Of a stretch of DNA of 64,000 bases, positions 1 to 19,531 are shown in pieces; the stretch's first letter is position 1, and each line of letters opens with the position of its first letter. A program made the translations under genes and the position numbers. The stretch lies in NCBI GenBank assembly GCA_033286805.1, contig GCA_033286805.1_4727.1; one strand, given 5' to 3'. Source of the DNA: a phage. The notes under the pieces were generated by a model. The model searched no databases, had not been told where the DNA came from, and worked only from the letters and a program-made list of their open reading frames with translations.

Positions 1-1334
1 CAAGACGTAACACCCTGCTTATCGGGGTTCAGTCTGTAATTCACATCCACCTTCAGGCTTTTCGTAACCTGCGTAATCGCACTATGCACTTTGGTCACCG
101 TTTTGCCTTTCTTATCCTTTTCTGTTTCGAAAAGAACGTCGGTGATTTCGGTTACAACCAGACGCGGTGTGGATTCGCGGTTAGCATCAAGCCATTCATC
201 CAGTAACGTCTTTAAGAAGTTCAAGGAATCAATCGCACGCCAAGCAAGGTTAGGTGGATTGCACGCTTCCATTAAAATGGCTGTGTTCGATCCACCTAGC
301 GGAAGATGCACGCTCTTACCGAGGCCCGTCGGACGCATCGTAAGATCGCACTCACCCTCAAGAATATCGCGATGATATTGACGATGATGAAGGTTATCCG
401 TGTATGCGATATACACTGACTCCGTTGTCCCATGCTCTAATACCCGAGATGCATGCGTACGCATAATCTCAACAGCGTCATCCGGCTTACTTAAATAGAT
501 AACACTATACGCACTATCGCTAATCCTTTTCCCTAACTCAAGACGTCCCTTGTTGTCTTTATCGGTGTTACCACCGAAATAGATGTAGCGGCCATCTTTC
601 GCACGCTCTTGCTGCTGGTTGGTGGTAAAGTAGCAGCGTGAGAACGTAAAGAACGGGCTTATTTCCGGTTCGGGGCTCCAATACCCCTTAGCTGGAAGTT
701 CGCGGCGTATTTGGGTTCTTACAGCCCAGTCCTGGTTTTGTGACAGATATGTTCCACGCGTTGCCAGCATATCCGCACGTTCGTTACCAACATTGCCCTC
801 GTGTCCAGGAACATAGCGCAGCGAAATATCGATAGCGTCGCGCTTCGCATCCCTTATCGCGCTATCGAGTTTCCGCCACCGTTCCGCATTCATTAACGGT
901 TTATTGTCGGATTTAACCCAGTTGTTCTCTCGCCAATTAGCAAGATGGTTGGTGGCACCTACAACAACATATTGGCTGTCCGACAACAGCTGGATCCGTT
1001 TTGCCCCCTTTGCTTTTCCAAGTTCAATCGCACGTATTGCAGCATCCAACTCAGCCTGATTGTTCGTTACGTTGAAACCCAAAGCCTCTAACTCGTCCAC
1101 GTATTCCTTGGGTTCGACCAGCACAGCGTCTTTAGGAAAGTCGAGTTTAGGGTCAACATAACCGTATTGCGTTGGTTTGGGCTTCCCACTTTTTGAGGGT
1201 TCCAAGGTGCCTTTTATTTCTTTCACCATATCGTAGGTGTAGCCGTGCACGCCGTAGCCACCATACCCACTCGATGTTGGACGGGATCCTCCATCACAGT
1301 AGAAAACGGCACCGAGCTCAGTATTTCCTGCCAT
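1..1334 (-). CDS. RNase HI-domain protein with long C-terminal extension; partial (3' end beyond window start)
   Basis: Minus-strand ORF from ATG at 1334..1332 (GAGG SD 7 nt upstream) runs open to position 1, so absent from ORF track. N-terminal ~185 aa match E. coli RNase HI block by block: CDGGSR, NNQAELDAAIRAIE, SDSQYVV..NW, VPGHEGNVGNERADMLA. Followed by >250 aa of unknown function. Confidence 0.8.
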   Translation of the reverse strand, partial: MAGNTELGAVFYCDGGSRPTSSGYGGYGVHGYTYDMVKEIKGTLEPSKSGKPKPTQYGYVDPKLDFPKDAVLVEPKEYVDELEALGFNVTNNQAELDAAIRAIELGKAKGAKRIQLLSDSQYVVVGATNHLANWRENNWVKSDNKPLMNAERWRKLDSAIRDAKRDAIDISLRYVPGHEGNVGNERADMLATRGTYLSQNQDWAVRTQIRRELPAKGYWSPEPEISPFFTFSRCYFTTNQQQERAKDGRYIYFGGNTDKDNKGRLELGKRISDSAYSVIYLSKPDDAVEIMRTHASRVLEHGTTESVYIAYTDNLHHRQYHRDILEGECDLTMRPTGLGKSVHLPLGGSNTAILMEACNPPNLAWRAIDSLNFLKTLLDEWLDANRESTPRLVVTEITDVLFETEKDKKGKTVTKVHSAITQVTKSLKVDVNYRLNPDKQGVTS

Positions 1335-1384
1335 TGTAAACCTCATTAATCATTGTCCGTATGATAGCCCAAAGTTGTACGGTA

Positions 1385-1936
1385 TTACCGATTACCGTCG
1401 GTTGACGTTGGTTGATCGCGATCGACTTTCATTGACCGCAGTTTTCCGCCGTTAATTACACATTGATTGCGTTGTTTGGCGGAGGTCAGACTATTACAGA
1501 CGTAATAGGTATCGATAAAACGTTCAACGCGTTCTTGAAACTCCCTCTCGTCAACTTTATCTTTTTCAAAGGTTCGTAACGCTCGATCAACCTCACCCTG
1601 GAGAATCCGGTTCTGTTCAACCATACTGTCGATTAAACGGCCTCTTACTTCGTTCGATGTGTAGAGTTGACGAATCAGTTCTCGGTTGGTGTCTCGTGCA
1701 TAACGCAATGTTGCATTTTCCTGACGTAAACTAGTCACGTCAGCCATCAAGGTAATGATTTTTTCGCCAGCAAATAACGTCACGATACCCAATACGATGA
1801 AAAAGCCCGTAATCAAGAATATCGAGGACTGTCGAGCTCCATCTCGACGATAGCGTGTGGGCGGTCGCTTACTTCGCCGAAACAACTCGCGAAGAAAAGG
1901 GAAAAGCCAGGGCAACGCCTTGAGTGTAGTAAACAT
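1385..1936 (-). CDS. membrane-anchored coiled-coil protein (hypothetical)
   Basis: Start moved to ATG 1936 (AAGGA SD). One N-terminal TM helix (IFLITGFFIVLGIVTLFAG) followed by heptad-like coiled-coil segment. Confidence 0.45.
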   Translation of the reverse strand: MFTTLKALPWLFPFLRELFRRSKRPPTRYRRDGARQSSIFLITGFFIVLGIVTLFAGEKIITLMADVTSLRQENATLRYARDTNRELIRQLYTSNEVRGRLIDSMVEQNRILQGEVDRALRTFEKDKVDEREFQERVERFIDTYYVCNSLTSAKQRNQCVINGGKLRSMKVDRDQPTSTDGNR

Positions 1937-1990
1937 GCGTGTGTCCTTGATAGTATGAAATTTCCAATACAACTTAACCGAGGACGTCGA

Positions 1991-3331
1991 ATGATTAGTA
2001 TTTTTGGTTTTTATACGTACAAAGGGTACGCTAATAACCACCCAAAAACCACGGCGAAATTCGGTGAGTTCAGTCAGCACAGTGCTACGTTCAGTCGCGA
2101 AATCGGCATCTATACCAACACGGCGTACGCACGTACGACCTTATTAGTGTTGAATGCCGAAAACGAAGCTGGTGAAGCACAAACGCTGAATGACGACACC
2201 GCAGGCCGTATTCTTCAGGTTGGTCAATGGTTGCTGGAAAAAGCCGCATCGGGCGAAATCCAAGATGACCGAGACCAAGTTATTGGCTACCTAAAAGACG
2301 ACTTCACAACGTATTTGGATTCTATCGACATCCCGACACCCACCACCGATGGGAACGTCTATCTACCGGCGTGGATCAGTTTCAAGATAACCGCCACGGG
2401 TGATGTTGTCAAGATATGGCTGTCTGATAGCGTATTCCAAAGTCAATATCCAAAATACGAATACGAAGTCGTTCCTCCTGTTCCTAAGGATCAGTTAGAC
2501 ACCTTCTTCGAAGATCTGGCAACGTTGAAGAAACTGGTTGACAGTCGAAGCAGCGAGAAACTGACCGAAGAAATCAACGAGGTGCGCGACCAATTCCCAG
2601 ACACACAATTGTGGACGAAAACCTATAAAGCGTACGATTACACCGACGATTCGAAGTACATTGATACCGATTGGACGGTGATTATCTACGGTGCAGCAGG
2701 TAACAATATTGATAATATCAAGGAGTTCCTGCAAAACTGGATTCTTAGCAATAGCACGCATGGACGCCCAGACTGGGAAATCGTTCTGCCGGATCTTTTT
2801 ATCCCGACAGAACACATCTTCATTCCAATCTGGAACCGCCACAGCGCTCCGGAGATGACCAATCAGGCACGTATCTATAGTCCCATCTTCGATGATTCGT
2901 TGATGGATACCTACCTGAAAAACTTTGCTGATGGTTACGGCGAAACCGCCGAAGTCCGTAAGTCGCTTCAAGCGGTGCCGACGTTGTGGCGCTCGATCGG
3001 TTTCTTAAGTGTTGGTAACTCACGTAACCGTGATGGTAAACTTAAGTTCTACGACCGCTGGCCACAATACGCGCTCATCAGCACAACCAGCATCGACATT
3101 AACCGTATCGACGATGCGACACGTGAATTCATCACCTTCACTTACGAAATGCTGAAACTGGCAGAATCGCTGACCGAAGACGACCCGGTACCGTTGGGTT
3201 ATAGTCGTGTTACGCGTGGTAGCAATAGCTTCTTAGCGAAAAGCCATAACGATGTTCAGTATCTCTTCTTAACAAAAGAAGCGTTCCTGAAGAAAATGCC
3301 GGATGAAGCCGACACGCCTGTTGGAGGTTGA
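1991..3331 (+). CDS. hypothetical protein (446 aa)
   Basis: ATG 1991 with GAGGA SD 6 nt upstream; long ORF; no recognisable motif. Confidence 0.6.
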   Translation: MISIFGFYTYKGYANNHPKTTAKFGEFSQHSATFSREIGIYTNTAYARTTLLVLNAENEAGEAQTLNDDTAGRILQVGQWLLEKAASGEIQDDRDQVIGYLKDDFTTYLDSIDIPTPTTDGNVYLPAWISFKITATGDVVKIWLSDSVFQSQYPKYEYEVVPPVPKDQLDTFFEDLATLKKLVDSRSSEKLTEEINEVRDQFPDTQLWTKTYKAYDYTDDSKYIDTDWTVIIYGAAGNNIDNIKEFLQNWILSNSTHGRPDWEIVLPDLFIPTEHIFIPIWNRHSAPEMTNQARIYSPIFDDSLMDTYLKNFADGYGETAEVRKSLQAVPTLWRSIGFLSVGNSRNRDGKLKFYDRWPQYALISTTSIDINRIDDATREFITFTYEMLKLAESLTEDDPVPLGYSRVTRGSNSFLAKSHNDVQYLFLTKEAFLKKMPDEADTPVGG

Positions 3332-3333
3332 TT

Positions 3334-3960
3334 ATGGCTGTAACACGCATGACGCCAAGTCCCGGTGCGGTCGGGGTATTCACAGTATCAGCGCCGTTTT
3401 CCGTTGGTGCGTCAACGCTATATACCGTTACAGCGTTACGCCGATTCAGCGAAGTCATCGGTAGTGGAATCGATCTATTTACGGAACTGTACGAACCGTT
3501 ATCAATAGACAAATCCACTTTCGAAGCGCATCTCGAAGCGAATGCTTATCTCGTCACGTTGCAACCGGATTATGGTGCGCCCGTACTGGTACCTGATACG
3601 TATATCACGTCGTACCCAAAGAACGATTCCTTGCGGTATCGTCGCATTATTCTGGGTATCGATTTCGGGCCTCTTCCTCCCGGTCTTGACCTTTCGTATT
3701 TAACAACGATATTGAAAGGTAAGGCCAGTGATATTCTTGGTGTCGAACCTGAAGTTAAAACGATGGAAATCACTCTCGATGATACCGTTACTCAGGAACA
3801 ACATCAGATAAACGAAGCCCGTCGTCAGGCTGCGATAAAAGAGCGGGATACCATTTACGCACGCTGTGAAACGCAAGAGAAGCAGATAACGGCTTTACTT
3901 GCAACCCAAAAGCAACTTATCAAATTGCTTCAAGACGCCGGTATCAATCCGACACCTTAA
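3334..3960 (+). CDS. hypothetical protein
   Basis: ATG 3334 preceded by GGAGG; starts 2 nt after upstream stop; ends 7 nt before hairpin at 3967. Confidence 0.55.
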   Translation: MAVTRMTPSPGAVGVFTVSAPFSVGASTLYTVTALRRFSEVIGSGIDLFTELYEPLSIDKSTFEAHLEANAYLVTLQPDYGAPVLVPDTYITSYPKNDSLRYRRIILGIDFGPLPPGLDLSYLTTILKGKASDILGVEPEVKTMEITLDDTVTQEQHQINEARRQAAIKERDTIYARCETQEKQITALLATQKQLIKLLQDAGINPTP

Positions 3961-3966
3961 CATATT

Positions 3967-3998
3967 CCCTCCTCCTTCCCTGTTGGGTTGGAGGAGGG
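3967..3998. terminator. CCTCC/GGAGG palindromic hairpin (H1)
   Basis: ccctcctcc-tt-ccc-tgtt-ggg-tt-ggaggaggg, then TTATGCCGTCA; between convergent genes 3334-3960(+) and 4071-4772(-); A13 tract at 4013-4025. Confidence 0.65.
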
Positions 3999-4070
3999 TT
4001 ATGCCGTCAAGCAAAAAAAAAAAAATGATAGTCACAGGCTCTCCAATGAAGGAGAGCCGTGACCGTCAGT

Positions 4071-4772
4071 TTAAGATGCAGATAATCTCGCGTACTTCTG
4101 GCGAACATGGTTCTTACGGCGAACTTCGTCGTCCTCGTCACGCCATTCGAGGTAAGCAACGAATCGACGTAACTGCGCCGCCGTCATCGTTGACGAGCGG
4201 TCTTCTACGTCTAGAACAACGTAACGAACATCACCAACACCATCGCAATCAACGTAACTGAATACCAAAAGACCATCACCGTATTCAACGATGGTAACTT
4301 CGAATCGTTTATTGAACAAATAAAACAGTTCCGATTCAATGATCATCGGAATGACGCATAAATCAGCACGATTGAGGATTTCCATCATCACCCGTAACGC
4401 GCGAGGAGTATGGCGAGCGAACTGGTCGTTAAAACGTTGTTTCATCGCTTGTTCCACGCCATCTGTTTTTGTTCCAAACCAAGGACGTATTACAGATTTC
4501 GGTGGTGTGAGACGAAAGCGATATGCTTGTATAAACAACAGAATATCAGCGACGTTAGGAAATTCTTCCTGGTCTTCGTATATCTTGCGGATAATATCCG
4601 GAATCGTAACCATCAAGTATTTCTTATCGCCTCCCACTTTCTCGAGATTAGCAATATGTCCTTCTACCATAGGCTGGTAAACGAAATTATACCAATGACG
4701 GTATCTTTCGGTGCGTTGGTAGTTTGGGATAAAATTAAGAATAATACTCACTGCGCGTTTTAATGGGTTCAT
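4071..4772 (-). CDS. hypothetical protein (233 aa)
   Basis: Long ORF on dominant strand, last gene of a minus-strand block, converging on hairpin at 3967-3998. Confidence 0.55.
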   Translation of the reverse strand: MNPLKRAVSIILNFIPNYQRTERYRHWYNFVYQPMVEGHIANLEKVGGDKKYLMVTIPDIIRKIYEDQEEFPNVADILLFIQAYRFRLTPPKSVIRPWFGTKTDGVEQAMKQRFNDQFARHTPRALRVMMEILNRADLCVIPMIIESELFYLFNKRFEVTIVEYGDGLLVFSYVDCDGVGDVRYVVLDVEDRSSTMTAAQLRRFVAYLEWRDEDDEVRRKNHVRQKYARLSAS

Positions 4773-4786
4773 CGGAAGGATCCTTC

Positions 4787-5200
4787 TTATGTTTTAATAT
4801 GCACATCGTCAATCCCCTCGGTAATCCAGCCGATGGGAAGGACAATCGTTGTTATCGTGTTATGGGTGTAATGATTGAGAAAGTGGAAATAGTAATTTTT
4901 GTTAGACTGTTCGATCCGTAGGTCGAGGTGCGCGTCTTCAGGTAACCGTAACCAAGCACCGTACAGTTCATTAAACTTACGCTGAATTTTACCGGGGTTC
5001 ATTGGAACCCCACGACCACGACGATGTAGCTGACGTAATGATTCAATCAAACACTCAGAGATACCCGTTGTCGTTCCGTTATCGCTTGTATCAATAACGA
5101 TGAACTCTCGTGACCCACGACCGAGATAAAAGCCAGCGACAAAAGCTGCAGCAACAAAAATTATCGTACCGATACCAATATACCAATAGTAAGTATCCAT
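4787..5200 (-). CDS. small membrane protein (N-terminal TM helix)
   Basis: ATG 5200 with GTGAGG SD; hydrophobic stretch IGIGTIIFVAAAFVAGFYL. Confidence 0.5.
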   Translation of the reverse strand: MDTYYWYIGIGTIIFVAAAFVAGFYLGRGSREFIVIDTSDNGTTTGISECLIESLRQLHRRGRGVPMNPGKIQRKFNELYGAWLRLPEDAHLDLRIEQSNKNYYFHFLNHYTHNTITTIVLPIGWITEGIDDVHIKT

Positions 5201-5211
5201 AACGACCTCAC

Positions 5212-5739
5212 TTATACCCAATAGTCGGCAAGCGGTTTTACCTTATTAATGGGCAACTGTACTTTACCGATGTTCTCTACATCCGCATCAGCGTAGAGAA
5301 CAATTTTATCATCGTCTCTTTCCCAACGAATAATAAATCGACCAGGAAGAAGATTACTCTGTTCAAGAGACGCAGTAACCTGCTGCGTCAAAACAGACAA
5401 CCAAGCAGGCATCAATGTTGCAATATCTAAGTCATTTGACCACTCAGCACGTTGCTCCACTGGACGTAACATACGTTCGACGGTGCGTTGAACCGTTGCG
5501 GTGATATAGCCTTTATCTTCGTCACTGATTGGATCAGGACGAGACACAAAACGTTCAGCAGGCTTGTGGGTAATATATTCATGCAAATCGATGAGTGGTG
5601 TTGTCATAGTACTCGCTCCATCAGAATGTAATTGGGTAACCCGTAGGGTTGTCTGCATGCTATTCAGAAGCGCAAAAGCGCCATAAACAACAACGATACC
5701 AAGTATAGCCAAAACAGAAATCATTAACGTGTATTGCAT
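5212..5739 (-). CDS. membrane protein (N-terminal TM helix)
   Basis: ATG 5739 with GGGGAG SD at 6 nt; TM segment LMISVLAILGIVVVYGAFALL. Confidence 0.5.
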   Translation of the reverse strand: MQYTLMISVLAILGIVVVYGAFALLNSMQTTLRVTQLHSDGASTMTTPLIDLHEYITHKPAERFVSRPDPISDEDKGYITATVQRTVERMLRPVEQRAEWSNDLDIATLMPAWLSVLTQQVTASLEQSNLLPGRFIIRWERDDDKIVLYADADVENIGKVQLPINKVKPLADYWV

Positions 5740-5840
5740 TGTCATCTCCCCTACATACGCATCTTGAAGATCGGTTAAAAACAACAAAAGAAAAAACGAT
5801 ATAAAGCAAGGTCCTCTGATATCAGAGGACCTTGGATCAA

Positions 5841-6497
5841 TTAGCTTGCAGCTTCTTCATTTGTATCAGGTTTGCTTCCCCCTAACAAACCGTCAAACAG
5901 ACCCGTATGTTTCAGGTAGAAGAGAGCGATAGCGCCCATTGCTGCTGCGCTCGTCGCCGTTAACGCAACCCCAGCACGATACTGCCATTTACGGTCAGGC
6001 TTTTGATCAAGAGCCATACGACGCATGTATTCAGCCTCTGCTTCATTCCGATGAATTTCGGATTCAGCCAAGCGGGCTAAGGTATCGCGGTCAAGGTTAT
6101 CATAACGTACGTTCATGGTGGTTTCCTCTTGTTTGGAAGTTGATTGCTTAGTGGATTCTTGGTCAACAGTCGTTTCAGATGGTTCAAACGGCTGGTTGTT
6201 CATTTTCTGATCTTTATTGGTCATGATAGACTCCTTCGATTTTTGAGATGAAATTGATTTAAACCATCGTGGATGGCGGTATTCAGTTTTACATGTGCAG
6301 TTAAGTTTCTCGTGCAGGAAAGCGTAAAAACGTTTTGCGCCTACACGTAAGGCTTTCAGCATTACCCATCCACGAGCACTCAAACGGTGTAGCTGTTGCG
6401 GTATGTCTAGTTTCCTAGCCAAGCGAAAGTATCTTTCAATCACTTCGATAGGAAACCATTGTTGTTCCACATCGGTGAGACTGAAAGTCTTATCCAT
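5841..6497 (-). CDS. hypothetical protein with C-terminal TM helix
   Basis: First ORF downstream of promoter box at 6522-6545; C-terminal hydrophobic segment GVALTATSAAAMGAIALFYL. Confidence 0.5.
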   Translation of the reverse strand: MDKTFSLTDVEQQWFPIEVIERYFRLARKLDIPQQLHRLSARGWVMLKALRVGAKRFYAFLHEKLNCTCKTEYRHPRWFKSISSQKSKESIMTNKDQKMNNQPFEPSETTVDQESTKQSTSKQEETTMNVRYDNLDRDTLARLAESEIHRNEAEAEYMRRMALDQKPDRKWQYRAGVALTATSAAAMGAIALFYLKHTGLFDGLLGGSKPDTNEEAAS

Positions 6498-6521
6498 GAA
6501 TGAAATCTCGCTGGCTTACTT

Positions 6522-6545
6522 CACTTAAGTAATATAGCCGTGAAA
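6522..6545 (-). promoter_or_regulatory. conserved 24-bp promoter-like box, copy a
   Basis: Plus reading CACTTAAGTAATATAGCCGTGAAA; minus reading TTTCACGGCTATATTACTTAAGTG; 25 nt upstream of ATG of 5841-6497(-). Confidence 0.55.
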
Positions 6546-6647
6546 AATGTTGGAATAAGTTAAATACCGCAACCGCAGCTAATTTTATAGGCTTTTAGCC
6601 TAAACCAATCATCTTCGGAATCATCATCTTTGAAACAGGAATCTATC

Positions 6648-7469
6648 ATGGAAAAAGTATTTGTTTGTAAGCTGTTTACCAACGGCAATAGCCAACCAAT
6701 GTACCTGACCGATCCAGTTCTAGGTAATCGGAACAGCACCGTATTCAAAGAAGCTTTCGAATACGCTAAAAATAAAGCCGTGAGAACACTGACGTCCGAT
6801 GACTGTATCAACGGTATCACGTGGGCGGAGTTATTCGGTGATGCTGTTAGACACTTCGTTCGGGACGCAAGAAAACGGGAAATCTGTCTCACGACTATCG
6901 TTGTGCGTGAAAATGCAGAAATTTTATCAAACGTTTTGGTTGATTTTAATGACGTTTGCGTGTTTAATCCAGAGAACACGTTTGAACAATATCTTACTGC
7001 CCTGAACAACCAGCTCGGTAAAGATATTCATCCCGAATTCGCCAAGTTAACATATCAGTTACTTTTTGACGACGTCGATCCAAATACGAAGATCGATACC
7101 AGCTTATCGCCCCTGGTAAAGAAATACGGATCGGTTCTCGCTACGGCAACACCCACCACCGATGGCGGTTATGATATCGAATTGGATGGTCCATTAAAAG
7201 AACAAGAGCCTACTGGGGTTAGGGCGGTACATCACAACCTCGTCGTTAAATCTGATGGGTGCGATGAACATTACGCTATGATAAACGATGAAAACAATTA
7301 CCGTTTAAGTCAAGCGATTGGTGTTCTACGCTATACCGAACCCACTGTTGTAGACGATTATACATCGACAACAACGCACACCACGTGTTTCATTTTCATC
7401 TATCCCAATGAAAGTGTGTACATTACTGACTGCTACGGCAATACCGTAGATAGCTTACGTCGTTACTAA
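6648..7469 (+). CDS. hypothetical protein
   Basis: ATG 6648 with AGGA SD 7 nt upstream; followed by TTCG-loop terminator at 7476. Confidence 0.55.
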   Translation: MEKVFVCKLFTNGNSQPMYLTDPVLGNRNSTVFKEAFEYAKNKAVRTLTSDDCINGITWAELFGDAVRHFVRDARKREICLTTIVVRENAEILSNVLVDFNDVCVFNPENTFEQYLTALNNQLGKDIHPEFAKLTYQLLFDDVDPNTKIDTSLSPLVKKYGSVLATATPTTDGGYDIELDGPLKEQEPTGVRAVHHNLVVKSDGCDEHYAMINDENNYRLSQAIGVLRYTEPTVVDDYTSTTTHTTCFIFIYPNESVYITDCYGNTVDSLRRY

Positions 7470-7475
7470 TCGTCG

Positions 7476-7508
7476 AGCCTGTCCTTCGGGGCAGGCTTTT
7501 ATGCTGTT
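7476..7508 (+). terminator. intrinsic terminator, TTCG-tetraloop family (T1)
   Basis: agcctgtcc-ttcg-gggcaggct then TTTTATGCTGTTA; directly after stop of 6648-7469. Confidence 0.75.
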
Positions 7509-7577
7509 AAATATCAGGAATAAGAATTAACAAAATAGGAAAATGGTGTGAATATAACACAAAGGAGGGAGATGATC

Positions 7578-7694
7578 ATGTTACTCATTTTAATGGAGAG
7601 AGCATTGCTGGCGGGTATCTGCGCATTCTCTGTTAAACACGCTGTTGCTATCATGGCTGAAGAAAGGCGTAATACGCATAATGTATTACGCTGA
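7578..7694 (+). CDS. small hydrophobic peptide (38 aa; MLLILMERALLAGICAFSVKHAVAIMAEERRNTHNVLR)
   Basis: Not in ORF track (<60 aa). Strong SD AAGGAGGG 8 nt upstream of ATG 7578; hydrophobic N-terminal half. Confidence 0.3.
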   Translation: MLLILMERALLAGICAFSVKHAVAIMAEERRNTHNVLR

Positions 7695-7711
7695 AAACAC
7701 TGTGTGCATTA

Positions 7712-8113
7712 GTGTATGACGAGAAATCGTCGAGGCCCCCGTCTTCACGAGGGCCAACACCTATGCATGATTATTCATCGTCTGTTAAACAAAAGGTTAT
7801 AAACATGAGCAATTTGAACGTTGAATTTACTTCAACAACGCCTGTCATGAATGGTGTTGGCACTGAAACCAAAATCGTATTAGAACCCATTCCAGGGTTA
7901 CGCGATCTCGGTGATTTTTATCCACTGATGCCGCGTATACGGAAGGCCTTAAACAGTATCGATCTTGATTCCAATAAAGATTTCCAACACGATACAGAAA
8001 ATACCGATCATGTATTGCTGCCATCAGGGATCGCAAAATTCACCTACACGCAAACATTGAAAGCCTCCGATGGTGAAATCCGTCGTTTTATCGTTGAAGT
8101 AGAAAGCGCATAA
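7712..8113 (+). CDS. hypothetical protein (start uncertain; alternative ATG at 7805)
   Basis: ORF ending just before hairpin 8119-8148; no motif recognised. Confidence 0.45.
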   Translation: MYDEKSSRPPSSRGPTPMHDYSSSVKQKVINMSNLNVEFTSTTPVMNGVGTETKIVLEPIPGLRDLGDFYPLMPRIRKALNSIDLDSNKDFQHDTENTDHVLLPSGIAKFTYTQTLKASDGEIRRFIVEVESA

Positions 8114-8118
8114 AAACC

Positions 8119-8148
8119 ATCCTCCCAACCCGTAAGGGAAGGGAGGAT
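8119..8148. terminator. CCTCC/GGAGG palindromic hairpin (H2)
   Basis: atcctccc-aa-ccc-gtaa-ggg-aa-gggaggat then AAATATGCCGTTA; convergent junction 7712-8113(+)/8167-8796(-); TTTTTAT on minus side. Confidence 0.7.
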
Positions 8149-8166
8149 GAAATATGCCGTTAAACG

Positions 8167-8796
8167 TTATTCAACAAACCCTGCATTCAACAGATTGTCG
8201 TAAACACGATTAGCGACATCAACAGGAGAATGTGTGTTACTGGTATCTATACGCAGCGTTTTCGCGTCGCCGAGATAGTCCATAAAATCCATGTAACGAT
8301 AACGTCGTTTATTGAATGTCGCTTCATCGATGTTATCAAACATCTGATGTTTAGCGTGACGAACACGGAACCGTCTTAAATACGTAGGATAGTCAATATC
8401 CAGATAAACATAGTAAGACGGCATGATAATCGACGGTAGGTTCGGCAACAACGCGTCAAACAGCTTAACGTTGGCATCATTAACCTGGTAAACATACGTC
8501 GAAGCAATCGAACGATCGCTAAGCACAGTTTTCCCTTCGTTAAGGGCTGGATGAATCACCTTGTTGAAGAGATGATTACGTTGCGACATCATCGCCAACA
8601 GCTCGGTTTCCGGATCGAATCTGTTTGTTGGTGTTTGGTCTTCCAGGATAAGTTTACGAATGGCTTCTCCGTAGAGAGTACCACCGGGTTCACGTACGAC
8701 ACAGACATTGTTTAAACGGCTGTGTAAAGACGAGATAACCGAACTCTTTCCTGAATAATCCAAACCTTCAATAACGATATACTTATTACGAGACAT
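8167..8796 (-). CDS. tmk: thymidylate kinase (dTMP kinase)
   Basis: MSRNKYIVIEGLDYSGKSS (P-loop), VVREPGGT, SDRS..YVYQ align with E. coli Tmk MRSKYIVIEGLEGAGKTT / FTREPGGT / GDRHDLSTQAYQ. ATG 8796 with GGAG SD. Confidence 0.9.
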   Translation of the reverse strand: MSRNKYIVIEGLDYSGKSSVISSLHSRLNNVCVVREPGGTLYGEAIRKLILEDQTPTNRFDPETELLAMMSQRNHLFNKVIHPALNEGKTVLSDRSIASTYVYQVNDANVKLFDALLPNLPSIIMPSYYVYLDIDYPTYLRRFRVRHAKHQMFDNIDEATFNKRRYRYMDFMDYLGDAKTLRIDTSNTHSPVDVANRVYDNLLNAGFVE

Positions 8797-8812
8797 TCCC
8801 CGCTCCAATTAA

Positions 8813-9988
8813 CTACTTCGTTTTTGCTGCCAACGGCTGCGATACTGTAATCTCTACCCGATTCTCATCGGTACGTTTAACGATGATAAGGCTGCGTTCA
8901 TCACCGAATGGTTCTGAGATCTTACAAGCCTCTTTAAGATTTTCGAGAATCGAGCCATGGGGTTCAAACACCGCAAAACCGGAACTAGCGTCGATTCTTA
9001 CTAAATATACACGCACATCGTTTACGGTAATGGTGTCATCCGTCTTGAACCCACAGCAGGAGGGTAGATGGAACTGGCCGGGAATACCGGCTACGTATGC
9101 CTCACCACCGAACATTTCTATTAACGTCACCGGTTTAAATGTTTTCTCTGGGAAAGCATTATTAAGAATATCGTTTCCATTCACAAACCAGATCGTTACT
9201 TTATCTTCAGAATACGCTAGTCGGTATGGTTGAGTTGCGGACGCTTGCGCTTTATGCTGGTTAAATAACTTTGATTTTGTCGCAATCACAGCACGGCCTT
9301 GGGCGTCAAAGTACAGAACTTCATACCCAACACATCCGATAAACACGCGACGGTTATTAAGTTCAGGGATTCTGACTACTAACGCATTACCATCTTCCGT
9401 CGGTGTAATACCCCGCAGGATAATCGATTCGTTATTCAATACTGAGTTGTCCACAACGATGCTTCGCATTACCGCTGGGGTTACTGTTTTATCTGCGGTG
9501 GGTTCAGGTTGCTCAGCAATGCGGTCAAAAGGTTCGATGGATACCATGGGAACGAAGTATTCAACGATATGCTTGTTTTCAGCACCAACGTCCATGACGG
9601 TGATCTGCAAACGCGTAGCATCCGAATTCAATGCTTGTTTCACACGTTCTGCATTAGGAGTATCACGGTCAATATGAATCAAGGCTTTTACCACACCGTC
9701 GTCTTCCAACCATCCCGTTAAAACGCGACCGACGATATCATTCACGTCACGAATCGGGAAGCACAGTTCAGCGCCATCGAGCACCGCTTCGATTTTACTG
9801 CTAATGACGGGCACCTTACCGTCGTTAAGATGCGCCAGCAGACCGGTTACTGCACCTTCACTAACCGGATGTTTTGTCGTCGTACTGACCAACGGTACGA
9901 TAAAACGATCTTCGCTGTATTTCTCGACACCACAGATAACCGGGACTTGAGGGCATTGATCAACCAGCCCCCATTCAACAGTATTCAT
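8813..9988 (-). CDS. hypothetical protein (391 aa)
   Basis: Long ORF in DNA-metabolism block; no motif recognised. Confidence 0.6.
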   Translation of the reverse strand: MNTVEWGLVDQCPQVPVICGVEKYSEDRFIVPLVSTTTKHPVSEGAVTGLLAHLNDGKVPVISSKIEAVLDGAELCFPIRDVNDIVGRVLTGWLEDDGVVKALIHIDRDTPNAERVKQALNSDATRLQITVMDVGAENKHIVEYFVPMVSIEPFDRIAEQPEPTADKTVTPAVMRSIVVDNSVLNNESIILRGITPTEDGNALVVRIPELNNRRVFIGCVGYEVLYFDAQGRAVIATKSKLFNQHKAQASATQPYRLAYSEDKVTIWFVNGNDILNNAFPEKTFKPVTLIEMFGGEAYVAGIPGQFHLPSCCGFKTDDTITVNDVRVYLVRIDASSGFAVFEPHGSILENLKEACKISEPFGDERSLIIVKRTDENRVEITVSQPLAAKTK

Positions 9989-10024
9989 AACGTTTTTTTT
10001 CCTTCTTGGGTTTTGTACGAGTTG

Positions 10025-10639
10025 CTAACGGCGTTTTGTACCGACCTTCCCATTTCGATGGTCATCAAGAATACGCCATTCTTCGAACAGGAGTTCAGCG
10101 GCGAAATAACCGACGGCGATGCTGTCTATCGCATGCTCATCAAGATTCGCTAACACAACACCGTTTCTGGGTGTGATGTTCATGAGGTTCAACACTTTCT
10201 GGCGAACATCGTCCTTACCAACACGGGACGTCATAATCCCAACAGCGCGTTTTGCGCTTCGGTTATCAACCCCTAAGAAAGACACCGTAGGGTCAAAATC
10301 GATAACCGTTGTCTGAATCGCTGAAAACAGCTCGCTGAGCGCCATACCGCTTTGCTTGAAACGACCGATGAATGGTGTCTCACAAGCAACCGCTTGCGGC
10401 TGGTACTCTTGCAATAACGTTGTCAGCGAACGACGGTGTTCTTGGATACGTGCGGCACGATTACCGTATCCAAGCGCAATATCACCATCGGGATCATATC
10501 GACGTGAAGCGTGCCATGTCCCTGCATACAGCAGTTCAATATCTTCGACACGCACGTCCAAACGTAGTAACGACGCACCGAGCGTATCGGTGCCAGGGTC
10601 GATTGCCAGAATATCGTAAGCGTATTCTGGTGGGATCAT
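10025..10639 (-). CDS. RuvC-like Holliday junction resolvase
   Basis: ILAIDPGTDTLGASL versus RuvC ILGIDPGSRVTGYGV; AVACETPF (catalytic Glu); DEHAIDSIAVGY versus ADAADALAIAITH. Start ATG 10639 overlaps upstream stop (ATGA). Confidence 0.65.
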   Translation of the reverse strand: MIPPEYAYDILAIDPGTDTLGASLLRLDVRVEDIELLYAGTWHASRRYDPDGDIALGYGNRAARIQEHRRSLTTLLQEYQPQAVACETPFIGRFKQSGMALSELFSAIQTTVIDFDPTVSFLGVDNRSAKRAVGIMTSRVGKDDVRQKVLNLMNITPRNGVVLANLDEHAIDSIAVGYFAAELLFEEWRILDDHRNGKVGTKRR

Positions 10640-11454
10640 GGTGTTACAACAGCCTCTACTGACCATGGGAAGGTTTTCGCAACAACACCTTCCAGGAAGC
10701 GTTCAACTTCCGATTGCTCATACACCGAAAGCTTTTCGAACGGCGTTTGGTCTTCGGTTAAACCTACCGCATGAATAGGACCCAGGTCTTTAACCAGGGT
10801 GACTTCACCTTTAACGCCTTCACGTTTAACGATAACGGCGTGGTCATTAACCTTGGGATCGTACAGCACGCGCATCATGGTTACTGCATCATCCGGTTCA
10901 TAACCGAAATCGATGGCAACACGAGCATTCGTCCCTTCATCATCCAGAAGCTTGCTCAGCGCTTTACAACGGTCTTCAATCCAATCCAACGCGACCACGG
11001 TTTCTTGGCGTAGCTGAACCTCAACCTCTTTTCCTTGTTCGTCGATACGTTTCACGGTAACAAAATCGTGTAATAAACGGTCAGGAAGGAGAGAAGCAAT
11101 AAGCTCAACGTCGGGTTCAGGTTTTTCGTTTTCCAGAATGATGGTCGCTTGTGCGTCCAGATGTTCTTTAAAACGGATGTAGCGTGTTAATCGCAGAACT
11201 TCGTCTTGGGATTTTGCGTCTTCGGGAATAATCTCCGTCATGACGTTATAGATCTTTTCAGCGAACGTCGGAATTACGGTGATTGTAATTCGTGCTGGCG
11301 TGCCACGCTCCTGGTACTCATCGGCTAATTTCTTCGCCATCCCGTTAAAGTAGGTTTGGAGAAACGGTTGCTGCGTTAGAAACATTTTCTCCAGATCGGA
11401 ATAGCGATGCTTGCGTGCATGGCCTAGCTTCTTCATGGGTTTTTTCATCAACAT
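10636..11454 (-). CDS. hypothetical protein (272 aa)
   Basis: ORF immediately downstream of the SbcC-like gene; no phosphoesterase (SbcD) motifs found. Confidence 0.55.
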   Translation of the reverse strand: MLMKKPMKKLGHARKHRYSDLEKMFLTQQPFLQTYFNGMAKKLADEYQERGTPARITITVIPTFAEKIYNVMTEIIPEDAKSQDEVLRLTRYIRFKEHLDAQATIILENEKPEPDVELIASLLPDRLLHDFVTVKRIDEQGKEVEVQLRQETVVALDWIEDRCKALSKLLDDEGTNARVAIDFGYEPDDAVTMMRVLYDPKVNDHAVIVKREGVKGEVTLVKDLGPIHAVGLTEDQTPFEKLSVYEQSEVERFLEGVVAKTFPWSVEAVVTP

Positions 11455-11469
11455 AAATCCTTATTTATC

Positions 11470-13926
11470 TTAAATAATCGTGACGTGTTCGTTATACGTT
11501 TCAGGGAGGATGATGTTCGTTTTATCAAGAACCATACACTCGGCTTTACGGAATGATGCATGGTTGATCACATAGTGACTGATGAACCACACCTGGCTTA
11601 CGCGGTGGCCATCAACCAGACGACGAACAAAATCCATGGCATTAGATTGGTGTTGCGGATCAAATGTTGATGCGAATTCATCTAACATCAACGGATAATC
11701 CGTAAACCCTTTGTAATGCATCATCGCGATGATAAACGCGATATTGATAATTTCCTTTTGCCCCTTACTCCCATAAACAATATCTTTTCGCGGTGTCGGA
11801 TACTTCTCAGTTAAAAGCGGAAAACGATAGTTCAATCCTTGCGCGTCGATAGCACACGGGAGTATCTGAAGTTGGTATTCCCAAATACTCGCAATGATGC
11901 CGTTCATGTACTCAACGAACGCGTTGATGGGACCCGCAATTGTTTCGGCAATCAGTCCGTTGGATGGACTCAACTCATCCAGAACAAGTTGTGCGTAACT
12001 GAGCTGTTCTTCCACCTCTTTTTGTGTCGTTTCCAACTGAGCCAGAAGCTGCTGGTCGGTTTTAGCTTCCTGTAACTGCTGTTCGACATGGCTTATTCGG
12101 CGAACCGTATCAGACATCGCAGCACGTAACGATTTCGTGTAGAGGTGTTGCAGATACTCTAACCACAGTTGCGTTAACGCTTTATCGCTGTTATCAGAAC
12201 GCACCTGATCTTCCATAATCGCCGTAATGGTTTCCAATCTACCTTCCGTAGCTGTGATGGCTTGTGTTAACCGCTCAACGGTTGTTAACAACTCTGTCCT
12301 GTTCTTATAAAGCAATTCTCGACGTTGCTGTAACGGTTCAACATCAACCGCTTGTACCCGTTCGAGCATGCCTTGAAGATGCTTCCGTTCCTGTTCGGCT
12401 TGTGTGTAACGCGCAAGTTTCTCAAACGCAAGCAACCAATCGTTAATGATTCCAATGCTGCGGAATCCTAAACCGTTTTTACGTCCTTCTTCCAGCAGAT
12501 TGTCCCACATGGGTTTAATGGCGTAATAATCCTTCGTCCAACGTGTTAACTGACGATGCTGTTCCATCCAGAGCGTATAGCGCTGAACCTTCTCACTAAG
12601 CTCAGCTAACGATTTCTCTTGTTCTTCAACCCAAGCACGACCCTTCTGAATACGTTGTTCAATACCCGCTTTGCTGGTCTTTTCTGTTTCACCAACGTGA
12701 AAGCGATAATTGCATTTTGGACAGCTGGTCTGGGGTTGGTGGTTAAGGTGGTCGAGGTGCGCTTCTAAATCGGCTAACGCATGTTTCGCGTTACGCAAAC
12801 GCATTCTTGCCGCCTCTTCCTCCTTGATGTAAGCTTCAGCATCGTAAACATGATAGGTGTTGTCGGTATCAATCCATTCTTGCAATAGTTCTGTTAACGG
12901 AGCCTGAACTTGCGTGAGCTGTTGTAAACAAACCGCGGCGTCCAGATTCATTGTTAAAAGCTCACCTGGATGATCTTGCTGAAGTTGTTCGTCCAAACAG
13001 GCAAGGCGGGCTTTAATTTGATCAATATCACCTTCTCCAGACTGTTTCAACTGGTCAAGGATATTATCGATACCCAACAGCTCGTCAACCTGACTTTCGA
13101 GTTTCGCATTCGCATTCGCGAGTTGCTCTCTTAGTTCAGCCAGATTCCGCTGTTCTTGTTGCGATGTTCCTCCTTGGTAACGAACAACAGCACGAAGAAG
13201 CTCACGATTAAAATGATGGGCGCGTTGTGCGGATTCCAGAAGCTGTCGTTGATCAACATCGCTATCGAATAACGGCAATCCCATCATCGCTTCGAGCGCT
13301 GAGCGTTGCTGTTTTAACTCTGCTTCCAATCCCTGATGGTCGGTGCCGGTGTATTTCGCTTCAATGCGTTGTGATGTTTCAACCAACTTATTCAGCGTAT
13401 GCTCATTCACCGCTTTCAGTGAACGTACTTGTTGCTTAACCACCTGAAACAACTCAAGCGCATAATCGACGTTAACCGGACATATCTGCGTTAATCGTTC
13501 GCGACGTTTCATCGGTCCCATTTCGGTGAACTGATAAGCCGTTTCGTAACCTAACAACAAACGAATAGTGTCATCATTAAGTTCGAAATGTTCTTCAATC
13601 AGTTTCCACTGAGCGGGTTGTGTACCACCACCATTCAGGTTCTCGCTGTCGTTAACGTAGAACTCATGCTTAAACCCTTTTTCTAAACGACTGATAAGAC
13701 GGTATTGCTTATTACGGTGTTCGCAGCGGTACTCGTAATACCCGTCTTTATCAAAATCGGCACGCTCAGGAACGGTTGGATACAGCAAAGGCAATAGACT
13801 ACTCTTACCCGAACCGTTGCTGCCTAAAATGAGTTGTACGGGATTATCTGGCCGGATGACCAGCTCCCGAATCATCCCGGTATCAAAACGATTGAATCCA
13901 CGTAAGTGGAGATAGGTGCATCGCAT
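11470..13926 (-). CDS. sbcC: SbcC/Rad50-like recombination ATPase
   Basis: N-terminal Walker A LILGSNGSGKSSLL; central coiled coil with CxxC zinc hook (SCPKCNY); C-terminal signature-like GSKGQKE and Walker B LMLDEF. Start set at ATG 13926 (MRCTYLHLRGFNRF). Confidence 0.8.
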   Translation of the reverse strand: MRCTYLHLRGFNRFDTGMIRELVIRPDNPVQLILGSNGSGKSSLLPLLYPTVPERADFDKDGYYEYRCEHRNKQYRLISRLEKGFKHEFYVNDSENLNGGGTQPAQWKLIEEHFELNDDTIRLLLGYETAYQFTEMGPMKRRERLTQICPVNVDYALELFQVVKQQVRSLKAVNEHTLNKLVETSQRIEAKYTGTDHQGLEAELKQQRSALEAMMGLPLFDSDVDQRQLLESAQRAHHFNRELLRAVVRYQGGTSQQEQRNLAELREQLANANAKLESQVDELLGIDNILDQLKQSGEGDIDQIKARLACLDEQLQQDHPGELLTMNLDAAVCLQQLTQVQAPLTELLQEWIDTDNTYHVYDAEAYIKEEEAARMRLRNAKHALADLEAHLDHLNHQPQTSCPKCNYRFHVGETEKTSKAGIEQRIQKGRAWVEEQEKSLAELSEKVQRYTLWMEQHRQLTRWTKDYYAIKPMWDNLLEEGRKNGLGFRSIGIINDWLLAFEKLARYTQAEQERKHLQGMLERVQAVDVEPLQQRRELLYKNRTELLTTVERLTQAITATEGRLETITAIMEDQVRSDNSDKALTQLWLEYLQHLYTKSLRAAMSDTVRRISHVEQQLQEAKTDQQLLAQLETTQKEVEEQLSYAQLVLDELSPSNGLIAETIAGPINAFVEYMNGIIASIWEYQLQILPCAIDAQGLNYRFPLLTEKYPTPRKDIVYGSKGQKEIINIAFIIAMMHYKGFTDYPLMLDEFASTFDPQHQSNAMDFVRRLVDGHRVSQVWFISHYVINHASFRKAECMVLDKTNIILPETYNEHVTII

Positions 13927-14040
13927 GCTATGATAATCCTTCTTCGATACCTTCTGAACCCGTGGTTCAGAATGCGAAGCTGAAGCCATACTTCAGCGTT
14001 ATTTTCTATATCGTTATTTAAATCAGTAGGAGATTACAGC

Positions 14041-15129
14041 ATGAGCGACCTGGCAACAGACAATCGCACAAAAGGGAGTCAGCTAGCTCCAGACAACAAC
14101 GTAAGCGTTTTCCGTATCTTTGCCTTGGGTACTGTTGCTGCCGACTTTTCCAATAAAAGTCTGGAGGAAGATCCTAACCAAACGCTGGAGGTCTTTCTTG
14201 ATGAGATGATGTCAGGCGCTGATGGGAAAGTTGAAGCGGCGGGAAGCGTTAAAGAAGTCAGTGCAACAGACGCTCAAGGAAACAGCTATACGGCGAAAGC
14301 GGCAACAACAACCAGCGTACAGTGTTACTGGTTACCCTTCGGCAGTAACCGGATGACAGCACCTAACTTGAGGAAAGGTCAGCGTGTGGTGGTTTGGCGT
14401 ACCGCCGATGAAGAACAGCTCTACTGGCAACCCAAAGGAGGGGATAGCGAGCTGATGACCATGGAATCGGTTATCCTCACCGTCAGCGCACGTCCTAGCG
14501 CTAAGAAGGACCGTAAATCGATTTCAACGGAAGACTGCTATTACCTAATGGTTGATACCTTCCTCAAGAAGGCGGTTATCGGCACCAGCGCACAGCTTGG
14601 TGAAGTTACCCAAGTTTACATGGAACTTAATCTGGACGAGGGTTACCTACAGGTTGCGGACAGCGTCCATCAAAATCTGCTGTTACTCCATTTCGTTGAA
14701 CATATGCTGCGTTATCAAAACCAGGATGACAGCATCATCGACGTGACAAAAAAGAACATCACATTCCAGTGCGAGGATACGCTCAAAGCAATCGCTAAGA
14801 ACGATATCCGAATGAAAGCAAAAAACATTTATACCGAATGTGAGAACTTCGAGCGTACCAGCAAAACAGAAAGCGTTACGAGTCAGAATGTTTCTTTGAA
14901 GTGTGATCGTTACACCGCGCAAGTATCAGGACAGACCATGTTTAAATGTCCGAATACGGTATTCACTGGGGCTGTAAGCTTCACAGGTGAAGACGGAAAC
15001 ACGATGACGTTGAATGGGAACTTCATACACGTCGCAGGCTCTTGGCGTTCACCAACCGGAACAAACGTATACACCCACGATCACGGCGGTGTAGACCGTG
15101 GCAGCGGTCGTACAGATCCGTTCCAATAA
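14041..15129 (+). CDS. hypothetical protein (362 aa)
   Basis: ATG 14041 with AGGAG SD 8 nt upstream; followed by A-tract and hairpin 15150-15183. Confidence 0.6.
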   Translation: MSDLATDNRTKGSQLAPDNNVSVFRIFALGTVAADFSNKSLEEDPNQTLEVFLDEMMSGADGKVEAAGSVKEVSATDAQGNSYTAKAATTTSVQCYWLPFGSNRMTAPNLRKGQRVVVWRTADEEQLYWQPKGGDSELMTMESVILTVSARPSAKKDRKSISTEDCYYLMVDTFLKKAVIGTSAQLGEVTQVYMELNLDEGYLQVADSVHQNLLLLHFVEHMLRYQNQDDSIIDVTKKNITFQCEDTLKAIAKNDIRMKAKNIYTECENFERTSKTESVTSQNVSLKCDRYTAQVSGQTMFKCPNTVFTGAVSFTGEDGNTMTLNGNFIHVAGSWRSPTGTNVYTHDHGGVDRGSGRTDPFQ

Positions 15130-15149
15130 AAAAAAGAAATGCTATACAA

Positions 15150-15183
15150 CCTCCTTCCCTAGCCGTCAAGGCCGGGGAAGGAG
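15150..15183. terminator. CCTCC/GGAGG palindromic hairpin (H3, variant loop)
   Basis: cctccttccc ... gggaaggagg 10-bp stem with inner gcc/ggc stem; A8 tract upstream, T-rich downstream; convergent junction 14041-15129(+)/15200-15589(-). Confidence 0.7.
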
Positions 15184-15199
15184 GATTATAGTTTATTTA

Positions 15200-15589
15200 T
15201 TAACGCGTTGCATTCTGGATGATTTCTTTTCCGATCTTAACCAAAGCGGGTATCTGTACAGCGGTTGCGCCTCGATGACGAAACGCGGTCGTTAACGCGG
15301 TATCGATACTCACCGCACGTCCGTGAAGACGATCGAAATAGACTTGAGTGATTGCGGTAGCGTAATCCTTTCGCTGTTTCTTGGTTTGGCTCAACAGCGC
15401 CGCACTATGACTAACGATGAAGTAAGCGATTAAGAAGAACGCCGCTGACCGCGAACCAGGTAGAAAACCTTGTCGCTTAGGGAGCATCTCACAATCGCGA
15501 ACACTATTATCGTTCGCCAGCTCTTCCATATCAACACAGCATAATTTTGCATAGGTGTGGAGATAGTGGGTAAAAGTTGAATTTAACAT
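15200..15589 (-). CDS. hypothetical protein
   Basis: ATG 15589 with GAGGAAAG SD; last ORF of minus block ending at hairpin 15150-15183. Confidence 0.45.
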   Translation of the reverse strand: MLNSTFTHYLHTYAKLCCVDMEELANDNSVRDCEMLPKRQGFLPGSRSAAFFLIAYFIVSHSAALLSQTKKQRKDYATAITQVYFDRLHGRAVSIDTALTTAFRHRGATAVQIPALVKIGKEIIQNATR

Positions 15590-15695
15590 TTTTCTTTCCT
15601 CGATTACAATGAGTTCAATGTATAGCTTAAACGTCACAGAACGACGTATAACGGTTTGTTTTAATTTCTAATGGGTTTCCTTATCTAAGATTGAA

Positions 15696-16058
15696 TTAAA
15701 GCGCTCTGAAGAGTTCTGTAGCGTTCTCGTCACGTAAACAGGCTTCGTTCAACAATTCAGCTAACAGCTTCGACCGAACTTCAACAAATGTCCTGAGGCG
15801 ATGCTCCCATTCTAAACGGATAGTGTACGTATTATCCAGGTTTTTGTAATCAACGACAGATACCGAGCAGCGGGGTTCACGTTTGTTCACAGCACTCCAA
15901 ACATCACGGATAACCGTCACGCCTTTCTTGGTGCATGTAAACGTTAAAATACAGCGGTTATTCGCAGCTTCTTCACGGACGCCAACAAATTCACTTCGTA
16001 ACGATGAGACTTTGATCAGTCGGTCAATGGCGAGCGATAAACCGATACGTTGTTGCAT
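15696..16058 (-). CDS. small protein, tandem paralog family member
   Basis: Shares motif NRCILTFTCTKKG with next gene (MRCVRLTFVCTTLGK); AGAGGGGA SD before ATG. Confidence 0.5.
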   Translation of the reverse strand: MQQRIGLSLAIDRLIKVSSLRSEFVGVREEAANNRCILTFTCTKKGVTVIRDVWSAVNKREPRCSVSVVDYKNLDNTYTIRLEWEHRLRTFVEVRSKLLAELLNEACLRDENATELFRAL

Positions 16059-16059
16059 A

Positions 16060-16488
16060 TCAAATCCCCTCTTTCAGAATCTCATTGAGGCTATTAGCAA
16101 CCGCATCTAACTTCGTGCTGATTACTTTTGGTGTCAATCCGTATATTTTCCAAACTATCTGTGGTTGACGTATTCCATTTGTCTGACAATACATCTCGAT
16201 CGACAACACCATATCGTCGGTGAACGTCGTGCTTTCGCAACAACGAAGATAGGCAGCCTCAAGCAACGTCTTTCCTAACGTGGTACACACAAAAGTCAAT
16301 CGAACGCAACGCATAGACAACGTGTTCGCATTCATTGATGCTGAGATCGGCTGAATGTGTTCACGCAGTTTTTCGTCTTCACGTAAAAGTGATAGGGTGC
16401 GATGTAAGCTGGTGTGCTGAGCAACCAGTGAATGATAAAGACCAACGCGCGCTGCAGTTACTGCTGATTCGGGCCATTTAATTTTCAT
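16060..16488 (-). CDS. small protein, tandem paralog family member
   Basis: Motif MRCVRLTFVCTTLGKT shared with 15696-16058. Confidence 0.5.
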   Translation of the reverse strand: MKIKWPESAVTAARVGLYHSLVAQHTSLHRTLSLLREDEKLREHIQPISASMNANTLSMRCVRLTFVCTTLGKTLLEAAYLRCCESTTFTDDMVLSIEMYCQTNGIRQPQIVWKIYGLTPKVISTKLDAVANSLNEILKEGI

Positions 16489-16503
16489 GTTCGATTCCTC
16501 GTA

Positions 16504-16947
16504 TTAACACTGTGTTCCATTCGATAAGCGGGTGGTATCAAAACGATCCAGTTGGTGTACAATGCTATTAGCAACACGATGCAAATAGTGTATTTTGTCC
16601 ATTCGTGAAATCGCAGAAATCGTCCAGCAAGCCTCTGACGTCCAATAGGTGCCGTCTTCACTAAGGCTAACGTTATAAACTAACTTCGTCATCACATTTC
16701 TCGCCTTATGCTCAGCAGACCAGAATATGTTTTCTAACACATCCTTCCCCGTTTGTGAAAACACGAACCCAAGCTTCACGTCGAAGTCGGATGCTTCAAG
16801 ATTAACGCAGTGAAGATGATTCTCTAACGGCGCAAAAGAGGCTAAACGTTCCAGCGCGTTTTGCAGTGTGGGATGATCGAGCTTTTCGAGATCATCCACA
16901 GGTTGTTCAGGTACAATCGCGATCGATTTACAGAATTTAATTTCCAT
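16504..16947 (-). CDS. small protein, possible distant paralog
   Basis: Weaker related motif KLGFVFSQTGKD; preceded by palindromic element 16978-16995. Confidence 0.5.
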   Translation of the reverse strand: MEIKFCKSIAIVPEQPVDDLEKLDHPTLQNALERLASFAPLENHLHCVNLEASDFDVKLGFVFSQTGKDVLENIFWSAEHKARNVMTKLVYNVSLSEDGTYWTSEACWTISAISRMDKIHYLHRVANSIVHQLDRFDTTRLSNGTQC

Positions 16948-16964
16948 GGTAGGTTCCTCTTGAT

Positions 16965-16995
16965 AGATGGTAGTAACGGGGATACCGCGGTATCC
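16965..16995 (-). promoter_or_regulatory. TAGTAA + GGATACC palindrome element, copy 1
   Basis: ggTAGTAAcGGGATACCgcGGTATCCC; 18-bp perfect palindrome at 16978-16995; ~31 nt upstream of ATG of 16504-16947(-). Confidence 0.45.
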
Positions 16996-17004
16996 CCTAA
17001 GTCT

Positions 17005-17475
17005 TTATAACACGCCCCAAGCCATATTGGGTACAGGCTCGTTACGTTCGATGTAATACATCAAGCGTTCTTTAAGTTTGGTTAACGCCTCAGCAACGAT
17101 GTTCTCTATGGCGACGACCTTTTCCATATTGCTCATCGTATCCTTCCACGTGAACCATTCGATCAAATTAACGGTGTGTAAGACCTTGTTATCGTCGGTC
17201 ATAACCTGGGTATTTTCACGACGATCGCGGGTTGTATACAACGGCGTTTGTATATTCGTTTTAATACGTGTCCAAAGCTCTTCCAGGAACTCACTCGATC
17301 GACTATCTGCCGTGACGATAAGCTCACTACGTACTGATTGTTCTCCTCGCTTTTCAATAACAAATAAACCATCGTAATCGATGTTCATCAATTTACGGAG
17401 GTTATCATTGCTATTCCAGTCTTTTACAACGGCAGGAAGTCGGCTATTGTAACCTTCAGGCAATCTCTCAATCAT
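17005..17475 (-). CDS. hypothetical protein
   Basis: ORF on dominant strand; overlaps next gene by 8 nt. Confidence 0.5.
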   Translation of the reverse strand: MIERLPEGYNSRLPAVVKDWNSNDNLRKLMNIDYDGLFVIEKRGEQSVRSELIVTADSRSSEFLEELWTRIKTNIQTPLYTTRDRRENTQVMTDDNKVLHTVNLIEWFTWKDTMSNMEKVVAIENIVAEALTKLKERLMYYIERNEPVPNMAWGVL

Positions 17476-17905: not shown

Positions 17906-17943
17906 CAGTTAGCTCCTAAATAGATCTACAACGAACTTTCGAT

Positions 17944-17966
17944 GGAAGGGAGTATGTTTCCCTTCC
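17944..17966 (-). terminator. GGAAGGGA/TCCCTTCC hairpin (H4)
   Basis: Perfect 8-bp stem, 7-nt loop; between minus genes 18081-18371 and 17468-17905. Confidence 0.5.
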
Positions 17967-19516: not shown

Positions 19517-19531
19517 TCAAAACAATGGATA

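Follow-up and report, generated by a model that had tools for sequence, protein, structure and literature searches.

What does a ribonuclease (RNase) HI domain do at the head of a protein several hundred residues long? The question is raised by a minus-strand reading frame at the left end of a phage DNA of 64,000 nucleotides (nt) (GenBank assembly GCA_033286805.1, contig GCA_033286805.1_4727.1), the whole of which we call the window. A preliminary description made from the letters of the window had read the frame as an RNase HI fused to a C-terminal domain of unknown function. Our analysis indicates that the frame very probably encodes Rhc (RNase H-clamp), that is, gp190 of Escherichia phage vB_EcoM_Goslar, a core protein of the nucleus-forming Chimalliviridae that combines an active type-1 RNase H with a sliding-clamp-derived polymerase cofactor domain. 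Rhc is already known, since the same protein was characterized experimentally in the literature of 2025-2026, and the sequence reading yields no new biology; the "unknown function" of the C-terminal domain accordingly no longer holds. The earlier observation is nevertheless confirmed and its interpretation supported, and the case illustrates that a reading of raw sequence can correctly flag such a fusion.

Identity of the reading frame

The frame opens at an ATG (positions 1334-1332, minus strand) and continues through 444 stop-free codons down to window base 1. A ribosome-binding site, ATGAGG (1341..1346, minus strand), lies 6 nt 5' of the ATG, and the same site is named in the preprint that describes the Goslar protein (Rani et al., bioRxiv, October 2026, PMC13648698). 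By tblastn against phage genomes, Goslar gp190 (YP_009820929, annotated "ribonuclease") was 99.8% identical to the translated frame. The full protein has 508 amino acids (aa) in Goslar, and the partial coding sequence in the window (1..1334, minus strand) supplies residues 1-444, the N-terminal 87%. The remaining 64 residues are beyond the left edge of the window, and the long C-terminal extension that had been described as running past this edge does so: it comprises ~300 aa (residues ~210-508), 235 of them inside the window. The "ribonuclease" family PHROG 3265 matched residues 6-436 (profile positions 5-423 of 496; E = 2e-84).

The window carries a Goslar variant rather than the reference; at the nucleotide level the two are ~98.3% identical within gp190 and ~95% identical across positions 3974-20000 of the window. 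Within the frame, 23 of 1,334 nt differ from Goslar, 22 of them silently, leaving a single amino acid change (N436T). This ratio points to strong purifying selection on both domains of Rhc and excludes chance.

Two lines of published work bear on the protein. In PhiKZ, the nucleus matures and the genome is amplified only with gp155 (Rhc, also Nlp2), an essential core protein that acts as a true RNase H in vitro (Gerovac et al., Nature 2025, PMC12571901). PhiKZ gp155 and PhiPA3 gp176 (PHROG 3265) are orthologues of the Goslar protein with the same two domains; gp155 aligned over residues 8-501 at 26% identity (E = 1e-48), is likewise indispensable for replicating the genome and maturing the nucleus, and is 26 aa shorter than its Goslar counterpart. 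In Goslar, gp190 was named Rhc by Rani et al., whose AlphaFold prediction assigns residues 1-209 to an RNase HI domain and residues 210-508 to a clamp domain with PCNA and 9-1-1 as its relatives. Knockdown of Rhc lowered the titer by ~4 logs, abolished replication, and stalled infection at the nascent nucleus (PMC13648698).

[quoted passage not shown]

The N-terminal domain (residues 1 to ~200; 735..1334, minus strand) is a genuine RNase HI with an intact catalytic site. Pfam RNase_H (PF00075) matched residues 87-194 with 90.8 bits (cut-off, 25.8; E = 1.2e-25). BLASTP aligned residues 36-191 with Escherichia coli RNase HI at 32% identity (E = 2e-19), which placed E95, D119, and D188 on E. coli E48, D70, and D134 and aligned residues 128-153 without gaps to the basic protrusion (E. 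coli residues 79-104). A profile of the Rhc family retrieved RNase H structures from the PDB, with an E value of 1.6e-29 for E. coli RNase HI and a range of 1e-26 to 1e-29 for the E. coli enzyme and human RNase H1. In the AlphaFold2 model of the protein, the domain shows the RNase H order of strands and helices, with a predicted local distance difference test score (pLDDT) mostly above 90.

All four catalytic acids recognized in the preliminary description are present. D14 (= E. coli D10; codon gat, 1293..1295) lies within the YxDGG motif of the first strand and is followed by E95 (1050..1052), D119 (978..980), and D188 (771..773); H178 (801..803) corresponds to E. coli H124 (all on the minus strand). 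In a MAFFT alignment of full-length relatives, each of these five residues was invariant (158/158). Rhc thus shares with E. coli RNase HI (RnhA, PF00075) the DEDD carboxylates, the histidine, the basic-protrusion segment, and 32% identity in the core, and it differs by a ~43-aa insertion bearing a TxxGY motif between strands β2 and β3 and by the 300-aa C-terminal fusion.

An alternative explanation is that the RNase H is a noncatalytic sensor or scaffold, the essential role of Rhc being purely structural, either as a polymerase cofactor or in licensing nucleus maturation. This would fit the finding that PhiKZ155 D102N fully rescues titer and replication (PMC12571901), as well as the behavior of D119N, the published catalytically dead Goslar Rhc, which retains its stimulation of the polymerase in vitro and restores most of the nuclear growth (PMC13648698). 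However, the Goslar D119N mutant rescues titer and replication only partly and late transcription not at all. RNase H activity has also been demonstrated in vitro for both proteins, the Goslar one cleaving RNA in RNA:DNA hybrids (PMC13648698, Fig. 3E). Moreover, the invariance of the five catalytic residues among relatives at 25-40% identity implies that catalysis is under selection, although PhiKZ tolerates its loss in the laboratory. We therefore consider a purely structural role unlikely and retain an active RNase H. The two phages differ in their dependence on it: the catalytically dead mutant complements fully in PhiKZ, whereas in Goslar catalysis is partly needed for replication and required for late transcription.

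An insertion after the first catalytic motif had been noticed before. Its presence stands, as the D14-to-E95 spacing is 81 residues compared with 38 in E. coli, but its length is ~43 aa and not the ~60 aa first estimated. Across the family the spacing has a median of 76 (range, 69-116; 158 relatives). Spacing, conservation, and the model together delimit a family-specific insertion at residues ~36-74 (1113..1229, minus strand) with the motif T55-x-x-G58-Y59. The AlphaFold2 model places it between strands 22-35 and 75-90 (β2 and β3), with a small hairpin at residues 53-60 and a lower pLDDT (64-85). Conservation among the 158 sequences was 89% for T55, 97% for G58, 98% for Y59, and ~90% for Y78 and D80. 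Term searches ("insertion" in both Rhc preprints, "hairpin" in PMC13648687) gave no mention of this element in the main text of either. In the texts searched, the TxxGY insertion is the sole part of Rhc left unexplained, a small loose end. Tentatively, the conserved insertion (T55-x-x-G58-Y59 plus Y78/D80) might form a separate functional surface that docks the tethered RNase H onto the polymerase or template strand, or that recruits Rhc to the non-virion RNA polymerase for a replication-independent role at R-loops.

The C-terminal clamp-like domain

The second domain (residues 210-444 of 210-508 in the window; 1..707, minus strand, cut by the window edge) could not be placed by sequence. Residues ~205-508 matched no Pfam family and no clamp Pfam at E ≤ 0.01, and at E ≤ 1 gave just subthreshold noise (CHASE, DUF6678, DUF6647). 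A 12-sequence profile of the region searched against all PDB sequences found no clamp even at E ≤ 10; one match, to a de novo design, was meaningless. Membership in a clamp family is thus absent at the sequence level within these thresholds.

Structure prediction, which had been suggested as a check, was more informative. AlphaFold2 was supplied with a shallow alignment of 12 sequences (a word-indexed homology search gave 7-11 relatives), and the models were confident nonetheless: pLDDT was 87.0 and predicted template modeling score (pTM) 0.82 for the full-length protein, and pLDDT was 83.3 and pTM 0.85 for residues 205-508 alone. The predicted domain consists of two similar beta-alpha-beta subdomains, as expected of a clamp fold, and clamps led its structural matches: HUS1 (score, 6.5), DDC1 (5.7), RAD9 (5.3), RAD1 (5.1), and MEC3 (5.0), followed in the top 12 by the African swine fever virus clamp, RAD17, bacterial beta-clamps, archaeal and eukaryotic PCNA, and T4 gp45. 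The herpesvirus processivity factors UL44, UL42, and PF-8 ranked lower in the same list, and every clamp match covered 140-175 residues. Foldseek against the PDB gave no significant match, with beta-clamp and PCNA ranked at the top. A structure search of BFVD returned jumbo-phage "ribonuclease H" proteins first (E = 1e-13 to 1e-19), and among the next few, weak matches were a beta-clamp from a phage and an ORF59 homologue from a herpesvirus. By these models, the C-terminal domain is a clamp-like fold.

Alternatively, the clamp likeness could be a weak structural coincidence and the domain chiefly a module for nuclear import or recognition by PicA. We regard this as very unlikely. In the published biochemistry, the clamp domain pulls down DNAP-C (gp244), and primer extension by DNAP-N+C is stimulated by wild-type Rhc, by D119N, and by the clamp domain alone; DNA-binding mutants (R233A/K259A/K262A/R264A/R318A) and assembly mutants give no stimulation (PMC13648698). 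The earlier suggestion that the RNase H is coupled to another activity was thus well founded: the clamp domain binds DNAP-C and duplex DNA and stimulates the polymerase (PMC13648698). [quoted passage not shown]

A clamp-like fold with two subdomains might also suggest that the domain closes into a DNA-encircling ring like PCNA or beta-clamp. This is highly improbable: the elements for ring formation and oligomerization are reported missing, and there is one Rhc per polymerase in the cryoEM structure (PMC13648687); AlphaFold gives no confident Rhc oligomer (Rhc preprints), and these phages are not known to have a clamp loader (PMC13648698, PMC13648687). Rhc therefore differs from PCNA, 9-1-1 (RAD9-HUS1-RAD1), beta-clamp, and T4 gp45 in having no sequence similarity to them and in acting as a single subunit, and from ring clamps generally in its reported lack of ring-forming interfaces and of a clamp loader. 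On the published data, Rhc works like a UL42-type processivity factor and not like a ring clamp, an analogy to UL42 that PMC13648687 draws explicitly. The herpesvirus factors UL42 (herpes simplex virus 1), UL44 (human cytomegalovirus), and PF-8/ORF59 (Kaposi's sarcoma-associated herpesvirus), in turn, are without an RNase H domain and have no detectable sequence similarity to Rhc. The C terminus of its polymerase gives UL42 a stable attachment, whereas the binding of Rhc is transient and is to the thumb and palm-insertion domains.

A polymerase subunit with a proposed role in RNA removal

Taken together, Rhc very probably serves as a third subunit of the split B-family DNA polymerase that the phage itself encodes. 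Its C-terminal domain, probably a monomeric derivative of the sliding-clamp fold, binds DNAP-C, and the concave basic clamp face binds the duplex DNA leaving the active site. Such duplex binding shifts the polymerase from exonuclease activity to synthesis and raises its DNA affinity and processivity. With neither a ring clamp nor a clamp loader known in these phages, Rhc appears to take their place. On its flexible tether, the RNase H domain probably strips template-annealed RNA ahead of the polymerase, and it probably also clears R-loops that would block late transcription in a compartment where transcription is uncoupled from translation. For late-gene transcription, RNase H catalysis and DNA binding are needed and polymerase association is dispensable (PMC13648698). 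The clearing of template RNA and the removal of R-loops were both proposed by the authors of the published work, and we take them as most likely. The authors of PMC13648698 also compare Rhc with retroviral reverse transcriptase, in which an RNase H1-type domain is likewise built into a DNA polymerase machine. There, however, the RNase H belongs to the polymerase chain itself and processes an RNA genome, whereas in Rhc its fusion partner is the processivity subunit of the B-family polymerase of a double-stranded DNA phage.

Some points weigh against this picture. Both key papers on Rhc are preprints; the PhiKZ155 D102N result means that the role of catalysis in replication differs between phages; and the role at R-loops rests on inference. 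In this picture, Rhc explains how nucleus-forming jumbo phages replicate without a recognizable sliding clamp, clamp loader, or primase and how late transcription is sustained despite its physical separation from translation, which is relevant to phage biology and to the engineering of therapeutic chimalliviruses.

Distribution of the fusion

The two-domain protein recurs widely. With phmmer run exhaustively, 493 cluster representatives came up at E < 1e-30; among the matches listed, nearly all were 470-540 aa long, and 150 listed representatives aligned over Rhc residues ~5-505. By tblastn, 451 phage records matched Rhc, 178 of them at a coverage of at least 80%, and the matching jumbo phages infect Vibrio, Pseudomonas, Erwinia, Serratia, Salmonella, Ralstonia, Xanthomonas, and other hosts. 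The recurrence of a two-domain protein of ~500 aa in relatives implies that the fusion is ancient and fixed and is no frameshift artifact. There is next to no chance that an ordinary RNase HI and a separate downstream gene were wrongly joined by such an error: the a priori point that bacterial RNase HI has ~155 aa is all that speaks for it, whereas the frame is unbroken, the 508-aa protein is present in the Goslar reference, an independent ENA contig encodes a protein of equal length (P0001), the representatives match end to end, nearly all of the nucleotide differences from Goslar are silent, and Goslar Rhc was purified as a single polypeptide (PMC13648698).

Neighboring genes and the junction of the Goslar record

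The order of genes around Rhc is shared by Goslar and PhiKZ. Downstream of Rhc, outside the left edge of the window, Goslar gp191 (143 aa; L001:4225-4656) starts 3 bp past the Rhc stop codon. It belongs to phrog_9853, whose function is unassigned, and is homologous to PHIKZ154 (E = 3e-8), which implies that the pair of Rhc and this small gene has been kept from Goslar to PhiKZ. Knockdown of PHIKZ154 had an effect in the table of an antisense oligomer (ASO) screen (PMC12571901).

On the other side, gp189 (183 aa; window 1385-1936, minus strand) lies directly upstream of Rhc on the same strand and has no PHROG or Pfam match. We considered it as the counterpart of PHIKZ156, which occupies the same position, and rejected this for want of similarity (E = 0.15). 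By eye, gp189 is basic at its N terminus, contains a single hydrophobic stretch (SSIFLITGFFIVLGIVTLFAG), and has a helical region that is long, charged, and heptad-like. The divergently transcribed gp188 at window 1991-3331 encodes a virion structural protein (phrog_3293) and, compared by product annotation and position, corresponds to PHIKZ157.

The window spans both ends of the linear Goslar record: positions 1-4026 correspond to Goslar 233282-237307, and position 3974 onward corresponds to Goslar from base 1. The 53 nt at 3974-4026 match both record ends, which could reflect either a terminal redundancy of short length or an overlap introduced in assembly. At this arbitrary start and end of the record, between the end of gp187 (3960, plus strand) and a minus-strand gene at 4071-4772, inspection by eye revealed a perfect GC-rich inverted repeat at 3965-4026 (CCCTCCTCC...GGAGGAGGG) followed by 13 A residues, which looks like an intrinsic terminator for the minus-strand gene or for both strands.
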